Below the pieces are notes generated by a model. That model was given only the letters and a program-made list of their open reading frames with translations, did not search any database and was not told the origin of the DNA. A stretch of 43,652 nt of DNA from a virus (taxonomy: Duplodnaviria > Heunggongvirae > Uroviricota > Caudoviricetes). Positions 7,149 to 27,237 of the stretch are shown here, one piece after another. Numbering within the stretch: the stretch's first letter is position 1; every line of letters begins with the position of its first letter. The stretch is from positions 1-43,652 of the IMG/VR virus record IMGVR_UViG_2617270938_000005; one strand, given 5' to 3'. A program made the translations under genes and the position numbers.

Positions 7149-8063
7149 TCAGTAGTTATGTACTGAAGGAGGTAATTCTTTATTCTTAAGTCTCATCCAT
7201 GCGGAAAGATTCGCTGGTCCGTCTGGCTCATTGATATCAACATCTCGTGTGTGATTGATTAAAACGTCTCTCGCCATTCCGATAACATACGAGAATTCAT
7301 GACCGTAGTCGTAGCATCTGCCGGAATAGTTCGATTGAATTTGTTTTAATGCCGGATACAGTTCGCGGAATAATGCCTGTGAACGGTTGGCATAATCCCA
7401 TAACCATACAAGGCTGTTTGCTTCTTTTGCAGAAAACTCGTTTGCTTTCTTCTCTTGTTTGCCAATGAACTCACCTTCAAGTGGAACTCGAGCTGCAAGT
7501 GACAGTGCTTCTGTAAACTGCTCCTCACTGATTTCTTTGTATGAACATCCAAAATGGGATTTCAGTGACGACCACATGGTGATCATCGCCTTCGCCTGTT
7601 TTTCTTTTGGCAGAGACTGACCGCGACTCATGACGAGTTGTTTAATAGCTTCCTGCTGTTCAGTGGTGATTTTACCAGGCAACGCCTTTTTAGCTTTCGG
7701 TGTATTTCCGTAAGACCCCGTTTTACGAATGGATGGCAAAACTTCAGCTGTTACCCATTTGCGGAATTTGTGCGGGACTGAACCTTTATTGACGGCATCA
7801 CGGCAGCGCAGAACCAATGTATACATACCTGATTCGCTCACAATGCTTAAATTCTGCTCACCACCAAGGGTGTAACTTAAAGTTACTCCCTTCTCATCGT
7901 CATCAAGTGCAGTAAGCGCCTTGCGTGAGTTAGTCAGGGCTAAAGCATCACAAACATCTTTTGCTACAAACCACGGCTCACCGCACTTGTTGATGACGCG
8001 GATTTCACTGTCGCCGAATTTGAAGATGGTGAAATCGTTTTGTGCCTTTGCTATACTTTTCAT
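7149..8063 (-). CDS. ant: antirepressor (Bro-N domain)
   Basis: N-terminal [16 protein letters not shown]...[11 protein letters not shown] matches Bro-N/antirepressor N-domain (cf. P22 Ant). Confidence 0.75.
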
Positions 8064-8095
8064 GTCAATATTTCCCGATCAGATTTGTTGATGTA

Positions 8096-8136
8096 GAAGC
8101 CTCGCCAGTTCCCGCTGTCGGGGCTTCGTTATTTTT
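8096..8136 (+). terminator. hairpin plus T-run in arc-ant spacer (possible sar-like antisense RNA terminator)
   Basis: GAAGCC...CCCG-CTGT-CGGG...GGCTTC hairpin followed by GTTATTTTT on plus strand; no plus-strand gene upstream. Confidence 0.35.
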
Positions 8137-8296
8137 AGAGAGCATTCCGCATTTTCTCCCGGTACTTCAACCACCAAGCTAATCCTTGAACCAACACTGA
8201 GTTTTCTGACATTCCCTCTTCCTCTGCAATGCGCTTAACTTCTTCCTTAAAGCGGTACGGGTAGCGAAGAGTTGTCTTTACTTCATTCTTTTCCAT
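8135..8296 (-). CDS. arc: Arc-like ribbon-helix-helix regulator
   Basis: 53-aa ORF (same length as P22 Arc) with AAGGAG RBS, immediately upstream of ant, divergent from mnt-like gene. Confidence 0.5.
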   Translation of the reverse strand: MEKNEVKTTLRYPYRFKEEVKRIAEEEGMSENSVLVQGLAWWLKYREKMRNAL

Positions 8297-8318
8297 GCTG
8301 TCTCCTTATTTCATAATG

Positions 8319-8333
8319 AAGGCAAATTGCCTT
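8319..8333. promoter_or_regulatory. 15-bp palindromic operator AAGGCAA-A-TTGCCTT in divergent arc/mnt promoter region
   Basis: Perfect inverted repeat between TTGACT (-35, minus strand) and the arc start. Confidence 0.5.
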
Positions 8334-8352
8334 TAGAGTCAATTTACCATGA

Positions 8353-8382
8353 TTGCACATGAAGTCAAGTTGCCTCTACAAT
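8353..8382 (+). promoter_or_regulatory. candidate sigma70 promoter for mnt-like gene
   Basis: TTGCAC - 18 nt - TACAAT, about 20 nt upstream of RBS GAGGTGA and ATG 8404. Confidence 0.45.
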
Positions 8383-8403
8383 GATTTTTATTTGAGGTGA
8401 GTT

Positions 8404-8727
8404 ATGTCAGAAAAATTTCCCAGCCAAATGCAAGACAAGTTCACCGTGAGGTTTCCTGACGGATTGCGCGATGCTATAGCTGAACGAGCTAAACGTAATG
8501 GCAGATCAATGAACTCAGAGATTGTGCAGATACTGGAAGATGCCTTGAATGCAGAAAATACTCTTGGGGAAATAGCAGATAAAATTAACAGCGTCTCGGT
8601 TCCGCTAAATGTTGATGCGCTAGTTCAACTTCAAGCCCAGGTTATCGCCATGCAAAAAGAAATACAGGAAAAGTTCAGAGAGCAGAACGAAAAGTTGAGA
8701 GAACTGCTAAACAAAAAACCCACCTGA
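8404..8727 (+). CDS. mnt: Mnt-like repressor (RHH)
   Basis: RNGRSMNSEIVQILEDAL closely matches P22 Mnt ANGRSMNSELLQIVQDAL. Confidence 0.7.
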   Translation: MSEKFPSQMQDKFTVRFPDGLRDAIAERAKRNGRSMNSEIVQILEDALNAENTLGEIADKINSVSVPLNVDALVQLQAQVIAMQKEIQEKFREQNEKLRELLNKKPT

Positions 8728-8734
8728 CGGTGGG
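8711..8734 (-). terminator. rho-independent terminator (mainly minus strand)
   Basis: CCCACC-TGAC-GGTGGG hairpin with T-run on minus strand (plus A-run 8713-8718), after the 8752 gene stop and overlapping mnt stop. Confidence 0.6.
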
Positions 8735-8751
8735 TTACGGAGAGGGCAAGA

Positions 8752-9087
8752 TCATTTAACCTTTCGGCAATCGTACGTCCAAAATTCCCGAGGCTCGTCC
8801 ATATTTTTGCGGATAACTTCAACGTTGAGGATCGCTTTTTTGTTTCGTTTGATGTAGTCCATACCTAACCAACGTCCAGTATTAGGATCAGGTAACATCC
8901 ATTGCATCATGACGTTATCGAAATCGTCTTTTTGTTTCAAAAAGGTCATTTTTTGTGTTTCTGGCTTTTGACCATTGATGTGCATGAGGCCATCATTGCC
9001 AGCATCAAAGCGGAATGGTCCGCACTGCGTTGCCGCCGAAACGGTTAACGGCAGGGCCAAGAATAAACAAAAAAATACTTTTTTCAC
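8752..9087 (-). CDS. small secreted protein (signal peptide), moron-like
   Basis: MKKVFFCLFLALPLTVSA-A signal peptide with AXA cleavage site; ATGA start/stop overlap with upstream tail gene. Confidence 0.5.
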   Translation of the reverse strand: MKKVFFCLFLALPLTVSAATQCGPFRFDAGNDGLMHINGQKPETQKMTFLKQKDDFDNVMMQWMLPDPNTGRWLGMDYIKRNKKAILNVEVIRKNMDEPREFWTYDCRKVK

Positions 9088-17361: not shown

Positions 17362-18303
17362 TTAGATGCCGTCGACGTAGGCCAGAGTTTCCGGATAAAC
17401 CGGCTCTACTGCACCCAGCTTGCCGTAATAGGTTACGAGCTGATACAGGCCGCGATACTGGATCGGCACGCTCATCAGCGGAACCATCGGGAAGCGAACG
17501 TATTTCTTGTCGTTGGTGTAGAACATCATGCGATCAGAGTTCGACACGCCACGACCTTTCGCCCATTTCACCGGACGGATGTTCAGAGGACGCCCGTTCT
17601 GGTGGTATGCGATGGTGTTGGTTTCCAGATAGGTCAGCAGGGACTGGTTACCAGCGCTGGATACGATGGTGCTTGCCAGCAGAGAGAACTGCTCCGGCGG
17701 GATCAGCATGTCCGTCGGTACCATGGAGTAAGCTGAGTTGGCCCACGCAGCACTCAACCCGGCATTAATGCTCGCCCGGATTTCGTCAGCGGTGGAGGTC
17801 GCCCAGGTCTTCGCGGCGTTGGTCGGCGTTACCTGCGTCAGGTTCAGCAGGCCTTTAACGTTCAGACCGGAATCGCCGATATAAACCTGCTCGTCCGTGT
17901 CCATGTTCCACTTCAGCTGCATGCCGTCGTACTTCTGCGTGTCGATCGGGCGACCAACCTGCGCAGCTGCCTGCAATTCAGGAACGGTCCAGCCAAGCTC
18001 CATACCCCACAGTGTGAGCGGGAAGCCAGTTTTTGCGATGTCGACGTTAAGGCCAGCCATCGCGGTCGCGGCTTTGCTAAGCCAGTTTTTACCGTTAGCA
18101 TTCGGCGTACCGGCAGCAGCAAAAGTGGTGTTAGTGAACGAGCTGATCTCATCAGCAATAGACACGTCTTCACGCAACTGGATATCGCGCGACCAGGTGA
18201 AATTCACCAGCGGCAGATTCAGTGTCTGATCGAGACGCTCCAGCTCATGGACAAGAAAGGCACCAGTGCCGTCGACTGTCGCCTGGTCAAATGTCATTGG
18301 CAT
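17362..18303 (-). CDS. major capsid protein (putative)
   Basis: 313-aa ORF downstream of scaffold/protease and decoration-like genes. Confidence 0.55.
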   Translation of the reverse strand: MPMTFDQATVDGTGAFLVHELERLDQTLNLPLVNFTWSRDIQLREDVSIADEISSFTNTTFAAAGTPNANGKNWLSKAATAMAGLNVDIAKTGFPLTLWGMELGWTVPELQAAAQVGRPIDTQKYDGMQLKWNMDTDEQVYIGDSGLNVKGLLNLTQVTPTNAAKTWATSTADEIRASINAGLSAAWANSAYSMVPTDMLIPPEQFSLLASTIVSSAGNQSLLTYLETNTIAYHQNGRPLNIRPVKWAKGRGVSNSDRMMFYTNDKKYVRFPMVPLMSVPIQYRGLYQLVTYYGKLGAVEPVYPETLAYVDGI

Positions 18304-18314
18304 TTGCGATTTCC

Positions 18315-18809
18315 TTAAATATTGAAGGCCAGCTCAATGTTGCCGCTGGTGTCGCCAGGGCCATTGAAGTAAGCGTTAGTGATCTGGACGGTATTCGAGC
18401 CATCAGCGGCGGCAAGGAACGCGCCGAGAGGGCTTGAGGCGGATGGTGTGGCCACTCGCATGTAGACCGGGCCATGCAGAGCAACGCTGGATGCATCCGC
18501 GCCGATGTTTACCGTGACGTAACCACGTACCAGGCAATCGCCGGTGAAGTTTTTACCGCTGCCTACCTGCTGGACTTTATCCGGCTGGCTGGCGGTCGGA
18601 TACGGACGAACATAAATGCCCACCAGCTCCGACGCTGTATCGCTCGCAGCGATTGGCACAAATTTCCCGGAGGAAATCTTGCCGCCAAGGCCGTAAGCGG
18701 GGAAAAGGTTGGAGGAGTCCAGCAGCTGAGGTTCAACCGTCAGATCCTGCGGACGAGAAATTGCCCCGGCGATGCCCGCTGGCATCCGGTAAAGAAATGT
18801 ATTACCCAT
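18315..18809 (-). CDS. head structural/decoration protein (putative)
   Basis: 164-aa ORF between scaffold-like and capsid genes. Confidence 0.3.
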   Translation of the reverse strand: MGNTFLYRMPAGIAGAISRPQDLTVEPQLLDSSNLFPAYGLGGKISSGKFVPIAASDTASELVGIYVRPYPTASQPDKVQQVGSGKNFTGDCLVRGYVTVNIGADASSVALHGPVYMRVATPSASSPLGAFLAAADGSNTVQITNAYFNGPGDTSGNIELAFNI

Positions 18810-18812
18810 TGG

Positions 18813-20015
18813 TTAGCCTCGTTTAGACCAGAATTCCTGCGCGGCCTGATTCATACCGGCAATGGTTTTAACAGTGGTGGCAGTCTGCGTTTGCAGGCTG
18901 TCGACGGTTTTGGTATTGCGGTTTTTCGCCAGCTCAGAAACAGCCGTGAAAGCCATATCTACCGTGGCTTTTTTCAGCTTGCTGATATCGGCATCACCGA
19001 CAATAGAGCGCACCAGAGATTGATCGGCAGAGGCGAGCACCTGACGCTTGAATGCTGTCGGCTTCGCCTTCTCTGGCAACTGGATGCCTGGCTGAATCAG
19101 ATCGGCACGGTAAGCGGCGTCGCCGGTAACCTTACCCTCTTCTTCCTTTTTCTCCTCTTCGTCCTCGGCATCGCCGGTTCCAGGAGCAGTTGCCGCAGGC
19201 GTGAGTTTGGCCACCGCCTCAATCAGCGCCTTACCCCATGCAGGAATTTCTTCCTCGGCATCGCCGGTACCAGGCAATGCCGGGCCGGGAAGCGGATTTT
19301 GCGGCGCAAGGTTGATGACCACTCCGCCAGGTGTCATAGAGGTCGATACGTCGTTATCGCCCGTGACATCATCAGGCGGGTTATCAATGAGACTTGCCAT
19401 TTCGGCAGCGTCCCCGGTTTTACGGGCCTTCAGGAGCCGGGTAAACCAGTTTTTAGTAGTGCTTGGCATAGAATCCCCTATTGCACAACGGAAACCGGCC
19501 CGCCCGTTAGGGACAAGGGCCAGATGGTTAGCGGTAATCGCAGATTGCTTTGCGAGACCAGGTGAAATTTGTTCGTAATCGGCGTCGTACCCGCAGCTGA
19601 CCTCATCATCACCATCATCAATGGCCTGCAGGGCTTCCGGGGTTTTAACGATGACATCAGCCAGCAGCAGATCGGTTTTATCGTCCGTGCCACGTCGTAC
19701 GTTCTGGATGTGCCCGTGAGCCAGCTGGCGCCAGTTGTCAGGGGTAACAAAGATGATCTGCCCGTCAAAATCTCGCGGATGGCCGATAGTAACTGCCATG
19801 CCTTCGAATGACGCCATGGCTCGCTCGCTGAACACCTCTTCTGGCATCCGGCGTACGATGACTTTCCCTCTGTCGTTTGGGACAAGCTCAGGCCGCTCTG
19901 TGGCGTCGTACTCCTGCTCACCAGTCCTTGCGATCGGGACGTCCTTAAATAGGACTGACCCATCAGCAAGTTGAAAGCGGGTATTACCCAGGCGGGTTTT
20001 AAAGAAATATTTCAT
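18813..20015 (-). CDS. prohead protease/scaffolding protein (putative)
   Basis: 400-aa ORF with acidic, Ala/Pro-rich middle region, located between morphogenesis protein and capsid. Confidence 0.4.
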
Positions 20016-20035
20016 GGATTACCTGCTGAATTGCG

Positions 20036-20065
20036 GGCAAAGAAAAGGCCGCTGAATAGCGGCCT
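20036..20065 (-). terminator. rho-independent terminator after moron
   Basis: GGCCGCT-ATTCA-AGCGGCC followed by TTTTCTTT on minus strand. Confidence 0.65.
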
Positions 20066-20070
20066 CGTTG

Positions 20071-20493
20071 TTAGTTACTATTTAATCTTTCTCGTAATAT
20101 CTTGGCTTTCTCAAGCTTTACTTTTGCCGATTCGAGAGTTTCTCTTGCTTGTTGCACCCTCCTGGCATCCTTGTTTGGATTACTTCCACGCCCTCCCCAG
20201 TCCGGGCTAGATATCCTTTCCCAAGCTTGTTTTGCGGATAATAAATAGCGTTCAGCACCTTCCACATCAGAGGCATTTCTTAACCACTCTAAATAGAACT
20301 TGGTAGCTTCTTCACAATTTTTTAAGAAATTCTCAATATCAGATTTTCTTGTTTTCCCCGTTGGCAGCGAGAATGGGCACCATTCAGATTGCTCTAGGGG
20401 TCTAAAATACCAAGAATATACCCATTGCCCGTTGATAAAATCGCGTTCATGGGTGAATTCTAACCCGTTAAGCTTATGTATGTTTTGCTTCAT
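20071..20493 (-). CDS. hypothetical protein, moron inserted in head module
   Basis: 140-aa ORF in visibly AT-richer segment with its own downstream terminator; no recognised family. Confidence 0.5.
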   Translation of the reverse strand: MKQNIHKLNGLEFTHERDFINGQWVYSWYFRPLEQSEWCPFSLPTGKTRKSDIENFLKNCEEATKFYLEWLRNASDVEGAERYLLSAKQAWERISSPDWGGRGSNPNKDARRVQQARETLESAKVKLEKAKILRERLNSN

Positions 20494-20517
20494 TTGCTAT
20501 CCCTATCGAGTTGTTAC

Positions 20518-20534
20518 TAATGCATTATGCATTA
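20518..20534. promoter_or_regulatory. 17-bp perfect palindrome TAATGCAT-T-ATGCATTA upstream of moron
   Basis: Perfect inverted repeat overlapping stop of the head morphogenesis gene, 25 bp upstream of moron start. Confidence 0.4.
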
Positions 20535-21314
20535 TTTTCTAAACTCAGGGATCTGCACTTCTGGCCAGCAATCGCAGTTCGGCAGGCATCCGGCGTGTCC
20601 GGTCATGCCGTCAAGAGTTGGCGGGTTATCCCAGCGCACAAATTTATCTTTCATTCCTCGGTGCGATGGCCTGGTACCAGCCCCCTTGATGCGCCACCAG
20701 TACCCCTCAGAGCCAACTGACAGCGCCCGAGCCTGAGTTAATGCGGTAGTTGCACGCCCTATCTCAGTGCGGGCTATCATCCGCGCCCTGCTGGCCGCCA
20801 CGTCACCGGATTGCATGATCATCTCGTAAAGCTGATCGGGGCGCTCACCATGGATGACAGCCTGTATCGCACGCTCCTGAATTTCTCTTATTCTTCCGGC
20901 CGCCTCTAATGGCAGAGACTTCATGTAGCGAATCTGCCGATAAACGATGTCTTGCGCCACCATGCCGACAGGAGTGTTACCAATCACGTCACGCAGACCA
21001 GCGGATATTTCTTCCGAAACAGAGCGCCACTGATTCCACTCTTCTCGCTCCACCTGGGCAAACATCTTTCGACCGACCATTTCTGCCCAGTCGTCGATCA
21101 CCCCGGAGTAGTCAACAAGCGATTTAGCAATGCTCTCAGCGCTTGCCTGTGAACCATCGTAGGAACCCGTGACGATTTGATTTATCTGGTCGACTATCGC
21201 CAGTAGGCTTTTCTGATACTGGACCTCCGATCGGCGGCGGAGGGCTGGTTTCAGATTCAGTCTCCTGCCACTGTTTCGCCGCATTCTGGATATCCTCATC
21301 GCTAATTGAAGCAC
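20532..21314 (-). CDS. head morphogenesis protein (Mu F / SPP1 gp7-like)
   Basis: C-terminal motif ...GHAGCLPNCDCWP typical of gp7/F family; 5' end overlaps portal so start uncertain. Confidence 0.6.
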   Translation of the reverse strand: MLQLAMRISRMRRNSGRRLNLKPALRRRSEVQYQKSLLAIVDQINQIVTGSYDGSQASAESIAKSLVDYSGVIDDWAEMVGRKMFAQVEREEWNQWRSVSEEISAGLRDVIGNTPVGMVAQDIVYRQIRYMKSLPLEAAGRIREIQERAIQAVIHGERPDQLYEMIMQSGDVAASRARMIARTEIGRATTALTQARALSVGSEGYWWRIKGAGTRPSHRGMKDKFVRWDNPPTLDGMTGHAGCLPNCDCWPEVQIPEFRK

Positions 21315-22587
21315 CGATGCCGGTAACGTCAGACAGCTCGCGCAAATCTGTCAGAGCAGCAGCCGGCGACATGCCCAAATCACGCACCGCGGTTGCAAGA
21401 GCGGTAGTTGTGTTGGTTGCCACCGTGGAGCGATCGGTGTCGCTCATCTGCCACAGGGGGTTAAACTCAAAGGTGAAATCTTGCGGCAACGGCTCGCCAA
21501 ACTCTGAGCGATGCAGTACATCGAATAACAGGCGGATGTGAGGCCGTAAATCTCGCTCCTGAAGCGTTCCAACGTCGTCGTAGTAGTTCGCGAGGTCAGC
21601 GTCACCGGTTGAAAAGCCCTTCGGTGACTGGCGGAACAGACGGACAAGAGGAATGCCAACAGCACCCGCGATATCCTCTTTAAACTCGCTAAGCAGGTCA
21701 GACAGGCCCGCGAAAGAATAGGAATGTGTTTCAAATTCGTCCTCCGAATCAAACAGGGACATACCCTCGTTCGTCTGGTACTGGCGAACTAACTCCATTT
21801 GTTTAACCAGCGCTTCGAATGGTTTACCGCCCATGGCGATAATTTCACGCAGCTTTTTAATCTTTGCCGTTCGCAGATGTGCCTTGTAGGCAAGCTGGGC
21901 GGCGCCGACGCTGGTGCTATCGTAGGAAGTCAGGCGATCGAAGATGCGCTCGACAATGGACATGCCCCACTCGTTTTCGGTGATTTTCTGCTGGTAGGGC
22001 AGTTTCACACCATCCATGCGAATCAGTCGGCTGTGGTGAACGGTCCACGCAGGAAGCCCCTGCGCCGTCGTCACGATGTCATAGAATTCTGGCTTGCCGA
22101 GATTGGGGCCAAGCGCCTTAATGCGCCTGGTGAGCTGTGGGTTAATCATCCAGCGGTCAAGTACAGCCAGACCTTTAAAGCTGCCCTTGCCAACCTTATC
22201 CAGCACCAGCGGCGTCAGCGGTGCCTGACCTTCAATCAGAATCAGCGCCCCCGCCCCGCCATACAGCCGGGACCATTTCAGCGTCTCGTTGATGCAATCC
22301 CAAAGCTGAAGCTCATCGAACCGTGATTCCAGAATGCCACGACGTTTCGGGTCAATCTCACTGGTGATCCGCACGCCCTTTTTGGTCATATCGTCCGCTT
22401 TCGAATCGACTGCAGCGCCAATAATCCAGGAGGAACGATAAGCCCACTCGATGAGCAGGCGGTTTCGGCTGGTATAGTTCGCCCTGTAGGTCGATGCGGC
22501 ATGCTGGTTAGGCTGCTGCATACCGACACGGGCAACAAAGTTATCGTACGAATCCGCCGTGGCGACTCGTCCTGTTTTCTTCGCCAT
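21136..22587 (-). CDS. portal protein
   Basis: 483-aa ORF downstream of terminase genes with acidic C-terminal tail. Confidence 0.6.
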   Translation of the reverse strand: MAKKTGRVATADSYDNFVARVGMQQPNQHAASTYRANYTSRNRLLIEWAYRSSWIIGAAVDSKADDMTKKGVRITSEIDPKRRGILESRFDELQLWDCINETLKWSRLYGGAGALILIEGQAPLTPLVLDKVGKGSFKGLAVLDRWMINPQLTRRIKALGPNLGKPEFYDIVTTAQGLPAWTVHHSRLIRMDGVKLPYQQKITENEWGMSIVERIFDRLTSYDSTSVGAAQLAYKAHLRTAKIKKLREIIAMGGKPFEALVKQMELVRQYQTNEGMSLFDSEDEFETHSYSFAGLSDLLSEFKEDIAGAVGIPLVRLFRQSPKGFSTGDADLANYYDDVGTLQERDLRPHIRLLFDVLHRSEFGEPLPQDFTFEFNPLWQMSDTDRSTVATNTTTALATAVRDLGMSPAAALTDLRELSDVTGIGASISDEDIQNAAKQWQETESETSPPPPIGGPVSEKPTGDSRPDKSNRHGFLRWFTGKR

Positions 22588-22824: not shown

Positions 22825-24225
22825 TTAGCTGTTTCCCAGCGCTTCCCAGATATCCATTGCCGTATCGGTTGGAGCAAACGCCATGATGAACGCGTCGGCC
22901 ACGTTCGGCGATGGTACGTCACGCTTGGCGAGGTCTTTCTTGCTTTCCACCATCACGCGCCCGTTTTTGTCAAAATCACGGTGCGGCGTGGTAAGTTCCA
23001 GCTTGAGCTTTTCCAGCAGCGGACAGGATGAGTCAATACTAATCAACTCATCTACCGGGTACTGCTCGCCGTTCTTTACCGCGTTGAAGGTGTTACGGAA
23101 GCGATCCGCTACCAGCCACCAGGCTTGCGCTTTGAGGTTGGCGAAAAAATCTTTGTTCGGGATGCCAATGTATTCGTAGTCCGGCTCATTCACACCAGCG
23201 CCAGCGTTGAAACGCTGATAGTTGATGCGGGATGCGTTCATGTTTTCGCGCTTACGATCCTCATTAATTTCTGAGAATTTCGCGCCAGCAGATGCCCCAA
23301 CGCCGATTGAGTCGTAGACGATATCAGCATCGCGCTCCAGTGCTGCCTGATACGTACGCTGGCAGCTCTTCAGCAATTCGTCTTCTTTCGCCTTCCACTC
23401 ATCCGCCCAGTACACGACGGAGCCGTGGCGATAGACGTTAGCGCACCTATCGGCGCCGCTATCGGCAACGTCGAAGCCAATACGCTTACGCCCGCTTGGC
23501 TCGAAATTCAGGATTTTGTGGGCATCAACAGCCGCCTCAATCCATGACAGCTTGATAATGGCCGCATCATCATCCGACTCTGGCACGCCTTCGTAGACAT
23601 GCTTAAACCCATCCGGATCCCGGCGCTTAGCGGCTTCGATAACCTTCAGCATGGTGTCGGACAAAAAGGGGTTTTCATCGTAGTTGATTTTGCGTATCAG
23701 CGTATCTTCTGGCGGGTCGACCACAAAGTTACGCCAAACGAAATCAGTCACCAGTCCGGGGTTAAAGATAAACCAGCACTCTGAGCCCTCTTTACGGATG
23801 GTAGGCTCCAGTATCTTCCACTGGTATTCCGTCAGCGCGTGGGCCTCTTCAAGCCACAGAACGTCGATACCTTCCAGAGACTTAATCTCTTCAATGTTGC
23901 GCCAGAGCCCATAAAACACGAATTCAGACCCGGTCACCCGGTTAATGATTTTGTTGTTCAGAATGCGGAAACGATGCCGCAGGCCAAAGCGGTCAATCTG
24001 AATTTTGAGCAGGGTATACACCGACTCTTCAATTTTGTTCTGGATCTGACGTGCACAGCAAAAGCGCAGGCTGTATTTATTCGACAGAAATATGGCGATG
24101 CCAGCGGCATCCCATGATTTTGACGATGACCGACCACCATAAAGCACTTTGTTACGCGCCTGCGTCGTCCAGAAGCTACGCAGGACCGGATTCAGCGTCG
24201 GTTTGGATGTCAGAGTAGAAGTCAT
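22825..24225 (-). CDS. terminase large subunit
   Basis: ATPase motifs (LYGGRSSSKSWDAAG Walker A-like) and nuclease C-domain; start uncertain (24225 to 24333). Confidence 0.8.
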   Translation of the reverse strand: MTSTLTSKPTLNPVLRSFWTTQARNKVLYGGRSSSKSWDAAGIAIFLSNKYSLRFCCARQIQNKIEESVYTLLKIQIDRFGLRHRFRILNNKIINRVTGSEFVFYGLWRNIEEIKSLEGIDVLWLEEAHALTEYQWKILEPTIRKEGSECWFIFNPGLVTDFVWRNFVVDPPEDTLIRKINYDENPFLSDTMLKVIEAAKRRDPDGFKHVYEGVPESDDDAAIIKLSWIEAAVDAHKILNFEPSGRKRIGFDVADSGADRCANVYRHGSVVYWADEWKAKEDELLKSCQRTYQAALERDADIVYDSIGVGASAGAKFSEINEDRKRENMNASRINYQRFNAGAGVNEPDYEYIGIPNKDFFANLKAQAWWLVADRFRNTFNAVKNGEQYPVDELISIDSSCPLLEKLKLELTTPHRDFDKNGRVMVESKKDLAKRDVPSPNVADAFIMAFAPTDTAMDIWEALGNS

Positions 24226-24952
24226 TGAGGTCACGCTCTCCGTTGCCATCATCAATACCTGCATCACGGCGAAGACGATCGGCCTCCAGCGACACCTTGT
24301 CAGTAGCAGCCTTGCGATAGTCCGTATCAGCAAATATTTTGCCTACCGTCGCAAGCGTGCCGACGATGGACTCAATACGAACGGTATTGCGCATCATCGC
24401 CTTCTCGGCGGCGCTGATATTTTCCATCAACACCTTTCTTTCCTGGTCCCCTTCAGCATCTTCCAGCTTGGTCAACCACCGGCCAATATTCTCTGCGGCG
24501 ACAAGGTTGTTAGCCCGAAGGCGAAATAATTCGTCTTCGAGTGTCAACGCTTTCGCGTCTTCAATGACCTCATCTTTGAGCAGAAGGCGCCGGGCGTAAC
24601 CACCATGCTTTAACGCCTGCTGGTTGCCGGGTTGGAATGGGTTGGTCGGCGGATCGGTACGCACCCCGCGTATCGGTTTCGTATCTGGTGGAGGTTCGGC
24701 TTTTGCTTGCGTACTTTTTTGCGTACGGCCAGCGCTGGCAGGCTTTTCGCTGGTACGCACCTTGCTCTTTTGCGTACCACTTTGCGTACCATTTTTGCGT
24801 ACCTGCGTACCGCTATTGCGTACCCAGTCAAATTTTTTAGCCCTCTTCCTGATAGCCCCTTCAGTAACGCCGTATTTATCGCCTATATCACGGAGACTAA
24901 GGACTCCGGCCCGGTATGCCGATTCGATGGCCTCCCAGTCCGGTTTTGCCAT
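24176..24952 (-). CDS. terminase small subunit
   Basis: N-terminal HTH (LSLRDIGDKYGVTEGAIRKRAKKF) and position upstream of large terminase. Confidence 0.6.
   Translation of the reverse strand: MAKPDWEAIESAYRAGVLSLRDIGDKYGVTEGAIRKRAKKFDWVRNSGTQVRKNGTQSGTQKSKVRTSEKPASAGRTQKSTQAKAEPPPDTKPIRGVRTDPPTNPFQPGNQQALKHGGYARRLLLKDEVIEDAKALTLEDELFRLRANNLVAAENIGRWLTKLEDAEGDQERKVLMENISAAEKAMMRNTVRIESIVGTLATVGKIFADTDYRKAATDKVSLEADRLRRDAGIDDGNGERDLNDFYSDIQTDAESGPA
24708..24823. repeat. array of 7 direct TGCGTAC(C) repeats plus one inverted copy inside the small-terminase gene
   Basis: Copies at 24708, 24720, 24771, 24783, 24796, 24804, 24817 and inverted at 24753; they encode GTQ tripeptides. Confidence 0.7.
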
Positions 24953-26711: not shown

Positions 26712-26741
26712 ATTATGGCTAAATGGATAATTGCATGTCAA
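26712..26741 (-). promoter_or_regulatory. late promoter pR'-like
   Basis: Minus strand TTGACA - 18 nt - CATAAT overlapping the 3' end of Q. Confidence 0.55.
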
Positions 26742-27237
26742 GGCCTTTAACAGCAACATGCTTAACTTTCTCAACACGTTTACGCATTTTGAAAGCATTT
26801 TGCATTGGCTGGTACAAAACAAATAACGACGCTTTCAGGATGTCGTCAATTTCGTTTCTACAGGTTGCCAGTGAAGGTTTTCTCCATCCCTCGCCACCAC
26901 GTCCACACATCTTGCGTGGCTTTGCAGTCGCGTGATAGTAGGATGCAATTGCTCGCTTAGATGAACCATGAGCGTAGTAGCTGAGGAGGATGCCAAAGGC
27001 TTTCTTGTCAATGTACATGACGGAATCGACGACCTGAGAAATCAACATTCCATCATCATCATTACACATTGGCCTTGTCATAACTCTTCCCGGCTCTACG
27101 CTCTCCATGAACTTCGCTATTACGCTGCTCATGCGCTTTTCCAGGCGGCCTGAATAAACCCATGCGCCCCACAGTTCAAGCCATCCATTCAGCCAATCGT
27201 GCTGTTCTTTGGTGAGGTTTAGTTCTCTTATACCCAT
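26719..27237 (-). CDS. Q: antitermination protein Q (phage 21/82-type family)
   Basis: Position upstream of lysis genes; [10 protein letters not shown] motif resembles the WGAW motif of Q82-type antiterminators. Confidence 0.65.

Follow-up and report, generated by a model that had tools for sequence, protein, structure and literature searches.

The window analysed here, a 43,652-nt stretch comprising positions 1 to 43,652 of the IMG/VR virus record IMGVR_UViG_2617270938_000005, is a lambda-like temperate prophage of E. coli in which the head genes all run on the minus strand. Between the MuF-type head morphogenesis gene and the DUF2213 gene, which is of the prohead protease/scaffold type, lies an open reading frame (ORF) of 140 amino acids (aa), referred to below as ORF140 (Table 1). 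An earlier reading of the sequence alone had described this gene as a self-contained moron, equipped with its own terminator and preceded by a palindrome, in an AT-rich segment that interrupts the head genes. The ORF, the low GC, the hairpin with its T-run and the palindrome are all found at the coordinates given there, and the ORF is a real protein-coding gene. The junction that it occupies is a hypervariable cargo slot, which is empty in many relatives and filled with other cargo in others, and the terminator-like hairpin beside it is present in the slot with or without the gene.

Table 1 Features of the MuF-DUF2213 junction, the other head genes and the Q antiterminator gene in the window
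Feature	Position	Strand	Remarks
Q antiterminator	26719-27237	-	PF06530 E 1e-25
Large terminase	22825-24333	-	
Portal	21136-22587	-	
MuF-type head morphogenesis gene	20532-21080	-	PF04233 E 5e-13; phrog_324 E 1e-76; RefSeq annotation
Perfect 8+1+8 palindrome, 17 bp	20518-20534		TAATGCATTATGCATTA; overlaps MuF TAA stop (20532-20534)
Cargo segment	about 20066-20531, ~465 bp	-	38-nt leader, ORF140 and 5 nt; absent in empty-slot relatives
ORF140 leader, 38 nt	20494-20531	-	Shine-Dalgarno AGGGA at 20504-20500, 6 nt before ATG
ORF140	20071-20493	-	140-aa cargo gene; WP_029363697 in RefSeq E. coli records
Intrinsic-terminator-like hairpin and T-run	20036-20066 (stem 20066-20045)	-	GAGGCCGC-TATTCA-GCGGCCTT then TTCTTT
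DUF2213 leader/ribosome-binding region	20016-20035	-	GCCCGCAATTCAGCAGGTAATCC; near-invariant in 39 distinct junction sequences
DUF2213 (Pa193_gp24) prohead protease/scaffold-type gene	18813-20015	-	PF09979 E 5e-36; phrog_530 'head maturation protease' E 2e-47
Cement protein	18315-18809	-	
Major capsid protein	17362-18303	-	

The MuF-DUF2213 junction as a cargo slot

The insertion of ORF140 into the head genes, as claimed earlier, is confirmed by the closest relatives, in which the MuF and DUF2213 genes directly adjoin. In the nearest phages (Wanchaivirus PDP110P2, Klebsiella phage Mulock and several Klebsiella prophages), both flanks match the window at 83-95% identity, and the two-piece matches place 1501 query bases on 1036 subject bases. 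The gap between the two genes measures 516 nt in the window versus 51 nt in Mulock, PDP110P2 and many E. coli prophages. In the empty state of these phages, the MuF stop is followed at once by the hairpin and then by the DUF2213 start. In the occupied state, the cargo segment is bounded by the MuF stop codon on one side and by the resident hairpin on the other, and the block TCAACTC..TAGGGAT.GCA.ATG is conserved among ORF140-type slots. Both states are found in E. coli. A 531-bp query spanning nearly the whole slot finds matches of 100% identity in several RefSeq E. coli chromosomes and is carried by 44 of 5426 complete genomes, while a 2-kb query matches 79 genomes, 44 of them with the insert. 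Among the 18 E. coli records listed for the 2-kb query, 14 join both flanks without the insert and 4 match one flank.

The slot was surveyed in 80 related IMG/VR loci gathered with the DUF2213 protein, in 77 of which both MuF and DUF2213 were located. It is empty in 30 of the 77 loci (gap of 3-69 nt) and occupied in 47, with cargo of 12 size classes. Members of the ORF140 family fill gaps of 509-516 nt in 8 loci. The remaining classes consist of gaps of 249 nt (9 loci, a 64-aa ORF), 261/262 nt (14 loci, a conserved AT-rich element with no convincing ORF), 302 nt (1 locus, a 66-aa ORF), 332/341 nt (3 loci, a 54-aa ORF matching phrog_35409), 455/459 nt (2 loci), 477 nt (4 loci), 528 nt (1 locus), 632 nt (1 locus), 743/744 nt (2 loci), 773 nt (1 locus, a 214-aa HNH homing endonuclease) and 934 nt (1 locus). 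Most of the classes are AT-rich, with a GC content of 0.39-0.50 versus 0.52-0.56 in the flanks.

The ORF-less element, about 210 nt long, is the commonest non-empty cargo; its loci are L056 (3240-3450), L066-L068, L071, L074, L076, L080, L085, L086, L089, L090, L098 and L099. Its invariant blocks are AAATGTT..GAAAATGTT and TAAG.AC..TTATGTTAAATAG, and the longer cargos (455-934 nt) begin with the same 5' block. The element could act as a promoter or operator module, contain a micro-ORF or give rise to a small RNA. For the other cargo, an interpretation as RNA is unsupported: an Rfam scan of eight loci gave zero matches, and RNAalifold yields a weak consensus for the ORF-less element (-9.8 kcal/mol with 3 covarying pairs). 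In Klebsiella phage ST16-OXA48phi5.2 (L002, 2026-2220) and nine IMG/VR loci with the 249-nt gap, the slot holds an unrelated 64-aa orphan ORF (MKKVHIESKRAGDRR...), which has no Pfam or PHROG match and sits on the downstream side of the resident hairpin, replacing the usual DUF2213 leader. In L092 (2795-3439), the slot is taken by a free-standing HNH homing endonuclease (phrog_374, E 7e-74), which suggests that homing could drive turnover at the junction. The slot thus resembles homing-endonuclease sites and accessory hot spots in phage structural operons, both in this occupant and in its mosaic flanks. It differs from homing-endonuclease insertions in that ORF140 carries no nuclease motif, and homing at the slot is inferred.

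ORF140 is not a one-off recent arrival. Homologues stand in the same slot at 76% identity in K. oxytoca, 55% in Citrobacter and about 44% in lineage P0006, and they have diverged to much the same degree as the head proteins beside them. When the two flanks are placed in neighbour-joining trees, the window nests in a clade of empty-slot phages, and all three outgroups carry ORF140. The flanks are mosaic, the nearest relative being different for MuF and for DUF2213: the DUF2213 flank is 99% identical to PDP110P2, and for the MuF flank the identity is 94.7% with an E. coli prophage and 89.8% with Mulock. Relative to K. oxytoca, the synonymous divergence (dS) is 0.64 in ORF140 versus 1.3 in both flanks. 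The mosaic flanks, the nesting in the trees and the lower dS of ORF140 together point to cassettes that were gained and lost by recombination within conserved flanks.

ORF140 and its protein family

The AT-richness noted by the sequence-only reading is evident in GC windows, with a value of 0.42 at the insert (400-nt windows, 20000-20599) versus 0.52-0.60 in the neighbouring head genes. ORF140 itself has a GC content of 0.409 and a third-codon-position GC content (GC3) of 0.383; in five flanking head genes the values are 0.55-0.57 and 0.57-0.69. The segment is compositionally foreign. The low GC is confined to this enterobacterial subclade, and distant members of the family resemble their surroundings (0.39 versus 0.41 in a Vibrio phage, 0.49 versus 0.49 and 0.655 versus 0.63 at metagenomic loci).

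ORF140 is taken as a real gene because it shows purifying selection, a confident fold and a conserved family. The ratio of nonsynonymous to synonymous divergence (dN/dS) is 0.20 versus the K. oxytoca orthologue, and 71 of 140 columns are invariant among the orthologues of K. oxytoca (76% identity) and Citrobacter (55%). A HMMER scan of 1.84 billion representative proteins yields 49 clusters of the family, 27 of them at E <= 1e-10, and nearly all are stand-alone proteins of 135-160 aa; the family is small and orphan. The AlphaFold2 model, built from three sequences, has a predicted local distance difference test score (pLDDT) of 91 and consists of a four-strand sheet (residues 6-41) followed by helices at residues 50-58, 60-74, 77-94 and 106-139. 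In the 23-sequence family alignment, P32, A63, N105 and P106 are invariant, and a conserved motif, PDW/F-GG-x-G-NNP-N/G-K (the PDWGG.G.NPNK loop), occupies the loop joining the third helix to the fourth. With a pI of 9.1 the protein is basic; it is also hydrophilic, with a grand average of hydropathy (GRAVY) of -0.99, and its sequence contains no signal peptide or membrane segment.

The absence of a recognisable motif, also remarked earlier, extends to the Pfam, PHROGs, NCBIfam, PADLOC and PDB searches, none of which gives a usable match. Pfam returns only EF-G-binding_N (E 0.098) and PHROGs only matches at E 0.015-0.028; NCBIfam and PADLOC return zero matches, as do all 23 family members when compared with PHROGs. 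The family profile finds among PDB sequences only spurious TPR/PEX5 matches (E >= 0.17) and no anti-CRISPR (Acr) protein, and a Foldseek search with the model places AcrIF24 and an AcrIF protein at non-significant values (E 0.5-1.2). A literature search for WP_029363697 gave no match.

The distant homologues are located outside head modules. The one in Vibrio phage Va_90-11-286_p16 (37.5% identity) belongs to an accessory region, where it adjoins a transposase and has Phd/RelE in its vicinity; elsewhere, homologues follow a DNA methyltransferase or lie near AAA_15/FRG genes or HipA. An all-against-all BLASTP comparison of the neighbours at the distant loci reveals no common neighbour gene and one weak pair only. 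In a metagenomic locus (L025, 1767-2744), the 325-aa protein P0010 contains an ORF140-like domain at residues 144-279; its C-terminal tail matches the C-terminus of the ParD antitoxin (PF03693, E 1.1e-3, below the gathering score), and no ParE-like gene is seen downstream.

Because the distant homologues lie outside head modules, the ORF140 protein is not a component of head or capsid assembly. The possibility of a conserved structural gene, which the sequence-only reading had named as speaking against a moron, was checked and found no support. The phages Mulock and GZ7, isolated free from wastewater or sewage, are without ORF140, and no PHROG structural family matches it. The gene is also missing from PDP110P2 and from 69 of the 77 related IMG/VR loci, and the closest relatives that lack it share the head genes at 94-99% identity.

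Transcription signals around ORF140

The hairpin immediately downstream of ORF140 has a folding energy of -16.1 kcal/mol (z -3.6), a stability equalled by 1 of 200 shuffles. The terminator of the earlier description is thus present, as hairpin and T-run, but it is not the insert's own, since it stands directly 3' of the MuF stop in relatives without ORF140. The hairpin, the T-run and the leader GCCCGCAATTCAGCAGGTAAyCC precede DUF2213 whether the slot is empty or holds ORF140, and also with most other kinds of cargo. When 28 distinct hairpin variants are aligned, 89% of the cells are paired and five of the nine pairs show changes on both sides; the covariation score is matched by 0 of 500 shuffles, and sliding the partner columns makes the pairing collapse. 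In the deeply diverged locus L016, a different stem sequence occupies the same place and is followed by T7. Because it is present in empty slots and shows compensatory changes across variants, the hairpin is a backbone element of the head operon and not part of the cargo.

A terminator-like hairpin in the middle of the late head operon (20016-20066 in the window) is conserved in 60+ loci, empty-slot phages included. It might insulate against non-antiterminated transcription, stabilise the mRNA or serve as a recombination joint. A hairpin beside an inserted gene should accordingly not be read as the gene's own terminator before relatives have been checked.

The self-contained unit proposed earlier does not hold: no promoter stands out, and the hairpin belongs to the operon backbone. 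A sigma-70 consensus scan of both strands between 19500 and 21500 finds 0 sites. In the 250 nt upstream of the ORF140 ATG, the best score of a position weight matrix (PWM), built from approximate textbook hexamer frequencies, is 3.2 bits, the 98.5th percentile of window positions. For expression from the prophage, which the sequence-only reading had suggested, the sequence offers no argument.

The palindrome is perfect and overlaps the MuF stop, as described earlier, but a role for it is not supported. Dinucleotide-shuffled windows contain 0.5 perfect 8+1+8 palindromes on average, and at least one occurs in 43% of shuffles. As RNA the element folds weakly (-5.5 kcal/mol, z -1.4), and it is degenerate in the orthologous loci L005, L010, L065 and L093, the K. 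oxytoca and Citrobacter slots included. An operator is rejected, given the chance expectation and the lack of conservation, and the palindrome is judged a chance feature.

Lambdoid late genes are read by Q-modified polymerase, and since the window encodes a Q antiterminator, the same is expected of its late genes. The top promoter match of the Q region, TTGACA-18-CATAAT (11/12 sigma-70 positions; 26741-26712, minus strand), overlaps the 3' end of the Q gene and is a candidate late promoter. The Q region of the window is unlike that of RM9513, otherwise the closest E. coli record.

Possible role of ORF140 and comparison with known systems

The favoured explanation, to which we assign a probability of roughly 55%, is that ORF140 is late-co-transcribed accessory cargo acting in phage-host conflict, one allele of the hypervariable slot. 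The cassette would consist of a short leader with a ribosome-binding site and ORF140, without a promoter or terminator of its own. It would be transcribed within the late Q-dependent head transcript, so that the protein is made in lytic growth, and the transcript would end at the resident hairpin, which Q-modified polymerase should read through. Recombination in the conserved flanks would exchange the cassettes of the slot or remove them, as the mosaic flanks and the homing endonuclease of a relative suggest. The product is predicted to be a small, basic, soluble cytoplasmic protein, in which an N-terminal four-stranded sheet is followed by a helical hairpin with the PDWGG.G.NPNK loop. Its role would most probably be an accessory one in phage-host or phage-phage conflict, for example in counter-defence or host takeover.

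Several observations weigh against this explanation. ORF140 keeps its position across head modules whose proteins share about 44-60% identity, which could point instead to an optional role connected with the head. No particular conflict function is backed by homology or fold in the PADLOC, PDB profile or Foldseek searches. In addition, every ORF140-type slot preserves a CATAAT hexamer immediately behind the MuF stop, at a distance of 30 nt from the ORF140 ATG; a credible -35 partner is missing, and the hexamer reaches the 99.5th PWM percentile only in the Citrobacter locus, but consensus scans may miss weak, activator-dependent or non-sigma-70 promoters.

The moron concept for lambdoid late operons, as in HK97/HK022, is reportedly due to Juhala, Hendrix and colleagues. 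ORF140 resembles such morons as an extra, dispensable gene of deviant AT-rich composition between late genes that are adjacent in relatives, with a terminator-like hairpin immediately downstream. It differs from them in that its promoter is not detectable, its hairpin is a backbone element present without the gene, and its position is syntenic across deeply diverged head modules, unlike that of a one-off addition. The label therefore fits in the loose sense of an extra, foreign and dispensable gene, and not in the strict sense of an autonomous unit of promoter, gene and terminator.

A classical self-contained moron, with its own lysogen promoter, a downstream terminator and a lysogenic-conversion, exclusion or defence phenotype, is unlikely, though it retains some weight. 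The AT-rich gene inserted between otherwise adjacent genes, the conserved CATAAT and the distant homologues near toxin-antitoxin and defence-like genes are consistent with it, as is the functional-looking terminator 5 nt past the ORF140 stop, which would insulate the downstream head genes from a lysogenic transcript. However, no promoter passes the scan, the best upstream PWM score is at background, CATAAT lacks a recognisable -35 partner and the terminator exists without the gene; the hydrophilic protein lacks the signal peptide or membrane segment that exclusion proteins often have, and PADLOC gives no match. Quite improbable is an optional head-associated protein, packaged in the capsid like T4 IP or P1 Dar, or as a partner of MuF, and delivered with the DNA. 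In SPP1, MuF is a capsid-internal, portal-associated protein, and across four diverged lineages of enterobacteria ORF140 always shares the orientation of the MuF and protease/scaffold genes and stands between them. Its basic character, the lack of a detected promoter of its own and a divergence that roughly tracks that of the head genes agree with such a role, whereas its distant relatives outside head modules, its absence from the closest relatives with nearly identical head genes, the lack of a PHROG structural match and the persisting compositional foreignness argue against it.

The adjacency to MuF also recalls polymorphic-toxin systems. An ORF of <150 aa follows 89% of MuF-toxin genes and 25.5% of short-MuF genes, and small ORFs directly downstream of muf have been proposed to confer immunity against C-terminal toxin domains of MuF (PMC5576092). 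Like the partners in such pairs, ORF140 is shorter than 150 aa, lacks a known domain and lies directly downstream of muf in the packaging/head module of a temperate phage; unlike in those pairs, the MuF of the window is a short form without a toxin domain. Counted from its annotated start, this MuF has 182 aa (the reading frame stays open to 21314), and its PF04233 match stops 11 residues before the stop codon, leaving no C-terminal toxin extension. That ORF140 is an orphan immunity gene of a MuF polymorphic-toxin system is very improbable. The ParD-antitoxin-like tail of one distant homologue (E 1e-3, below the Pfam cutoff) would fit, but no family member was found beside a long MuF, and members also occur far from any muf gene. 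A toxin-immunity pairing is rejected, as every MuF examined is short and without a C-terminal extension (the window, L005, L010 and L016). Least credible of all, and disfavoured, is the view that the segment is passenger DNA without function, or an AT-rich spacer in which an ORF was wrongly called. The gene is indeed AT-rich, dispensable and free of known domains, but the low dN/dS, the many columns left invariant among diverged orthologues, the reach of the family to a Vibrio phage and the confident AlphaFold2 model all contradict this.

Within the explanation that we favour, accessory cargo in phage-host conflict, a more specific comparison can be drawn. In Mu-like Pseudomonas phages such as JBD30, D3112 and DMS3, the anti-CRISPR region lies between the homologue of Mu gene G and the protease/scaffold gene (PMC3993853), and it corresponds to the low-GC region 'RGP G' (PMC4378225). 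By its placement, this region is the closest analogue of the ORF140 slot. Both follow portal and MuF-type genes and directly precede the protease/scaffold gene; both are low in GC, hold small orphan ORFs in mix-and-match fashion and are empty in some relatives. The Mu-like loci possess a conserved 5' promoter and a conserved 3' helix-turn-helix (HTH) aca gene, neither of which is seen at the ORF140 slot. The 516-nt slot contains no second ORF or HTH gene, and for the other cargo ORFs that were tested, Pfam gives no HTH match beyond a sub-threshold one in the 214-aa HNH endonuclease. Neither the PDB sequence profile nor the fold of ORF140 matches a known Acr. It is distinctly unlikely, though conceivable, that the MuF-protease/scaffold junction is a counter-defence slot equivalent to the Mu-like region and that ORF140 is a new inhibitor of host immunity or of a host machine, made late or packaged. 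If this were true, the roughly ten other orphan cargos of the slot would form a ready-made list of candidates.

ORF140 taken alone is one more uncharacterised phage accessory gene of a familiar class, and the variable slot is of greater interest than the gene. Its value lies in a precisely bounded and frequently exchanged site within the head module of prophages that are widespread in E. coli, Klebsiella and Citrobacter. Such slots are a practical hunting ground for counter-defence or host-modulating proteins in clinically relevant Enterobacteriaceae.

A second insertion is located inside the tail/baseplate genes of the window (7149-9087) and looks like a P22 immI-type module. It consists of an antirepressor (7149-8063, minus strand; Bro-N and P22_AR_C, E 6e-20 and 2e-29), an Arc-like repressor (8404-8727, plus strand; PF03869, E 1.5e-18) and an ORF (8752-9087, minus strand) that lacks a Pfam match and, on inspection by eye, seems to start with a signal peptide. 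Sites resembling promoters are grouped at 8290-8410 on either strand, and the minus strand has strong terminator hairpins at 7131-7112 and 8736-8717. The anatomy of promoter plus terminator is thus present in this module, unlike at ORF140. The closest E. coli records diverge from the window within 7149-9087.

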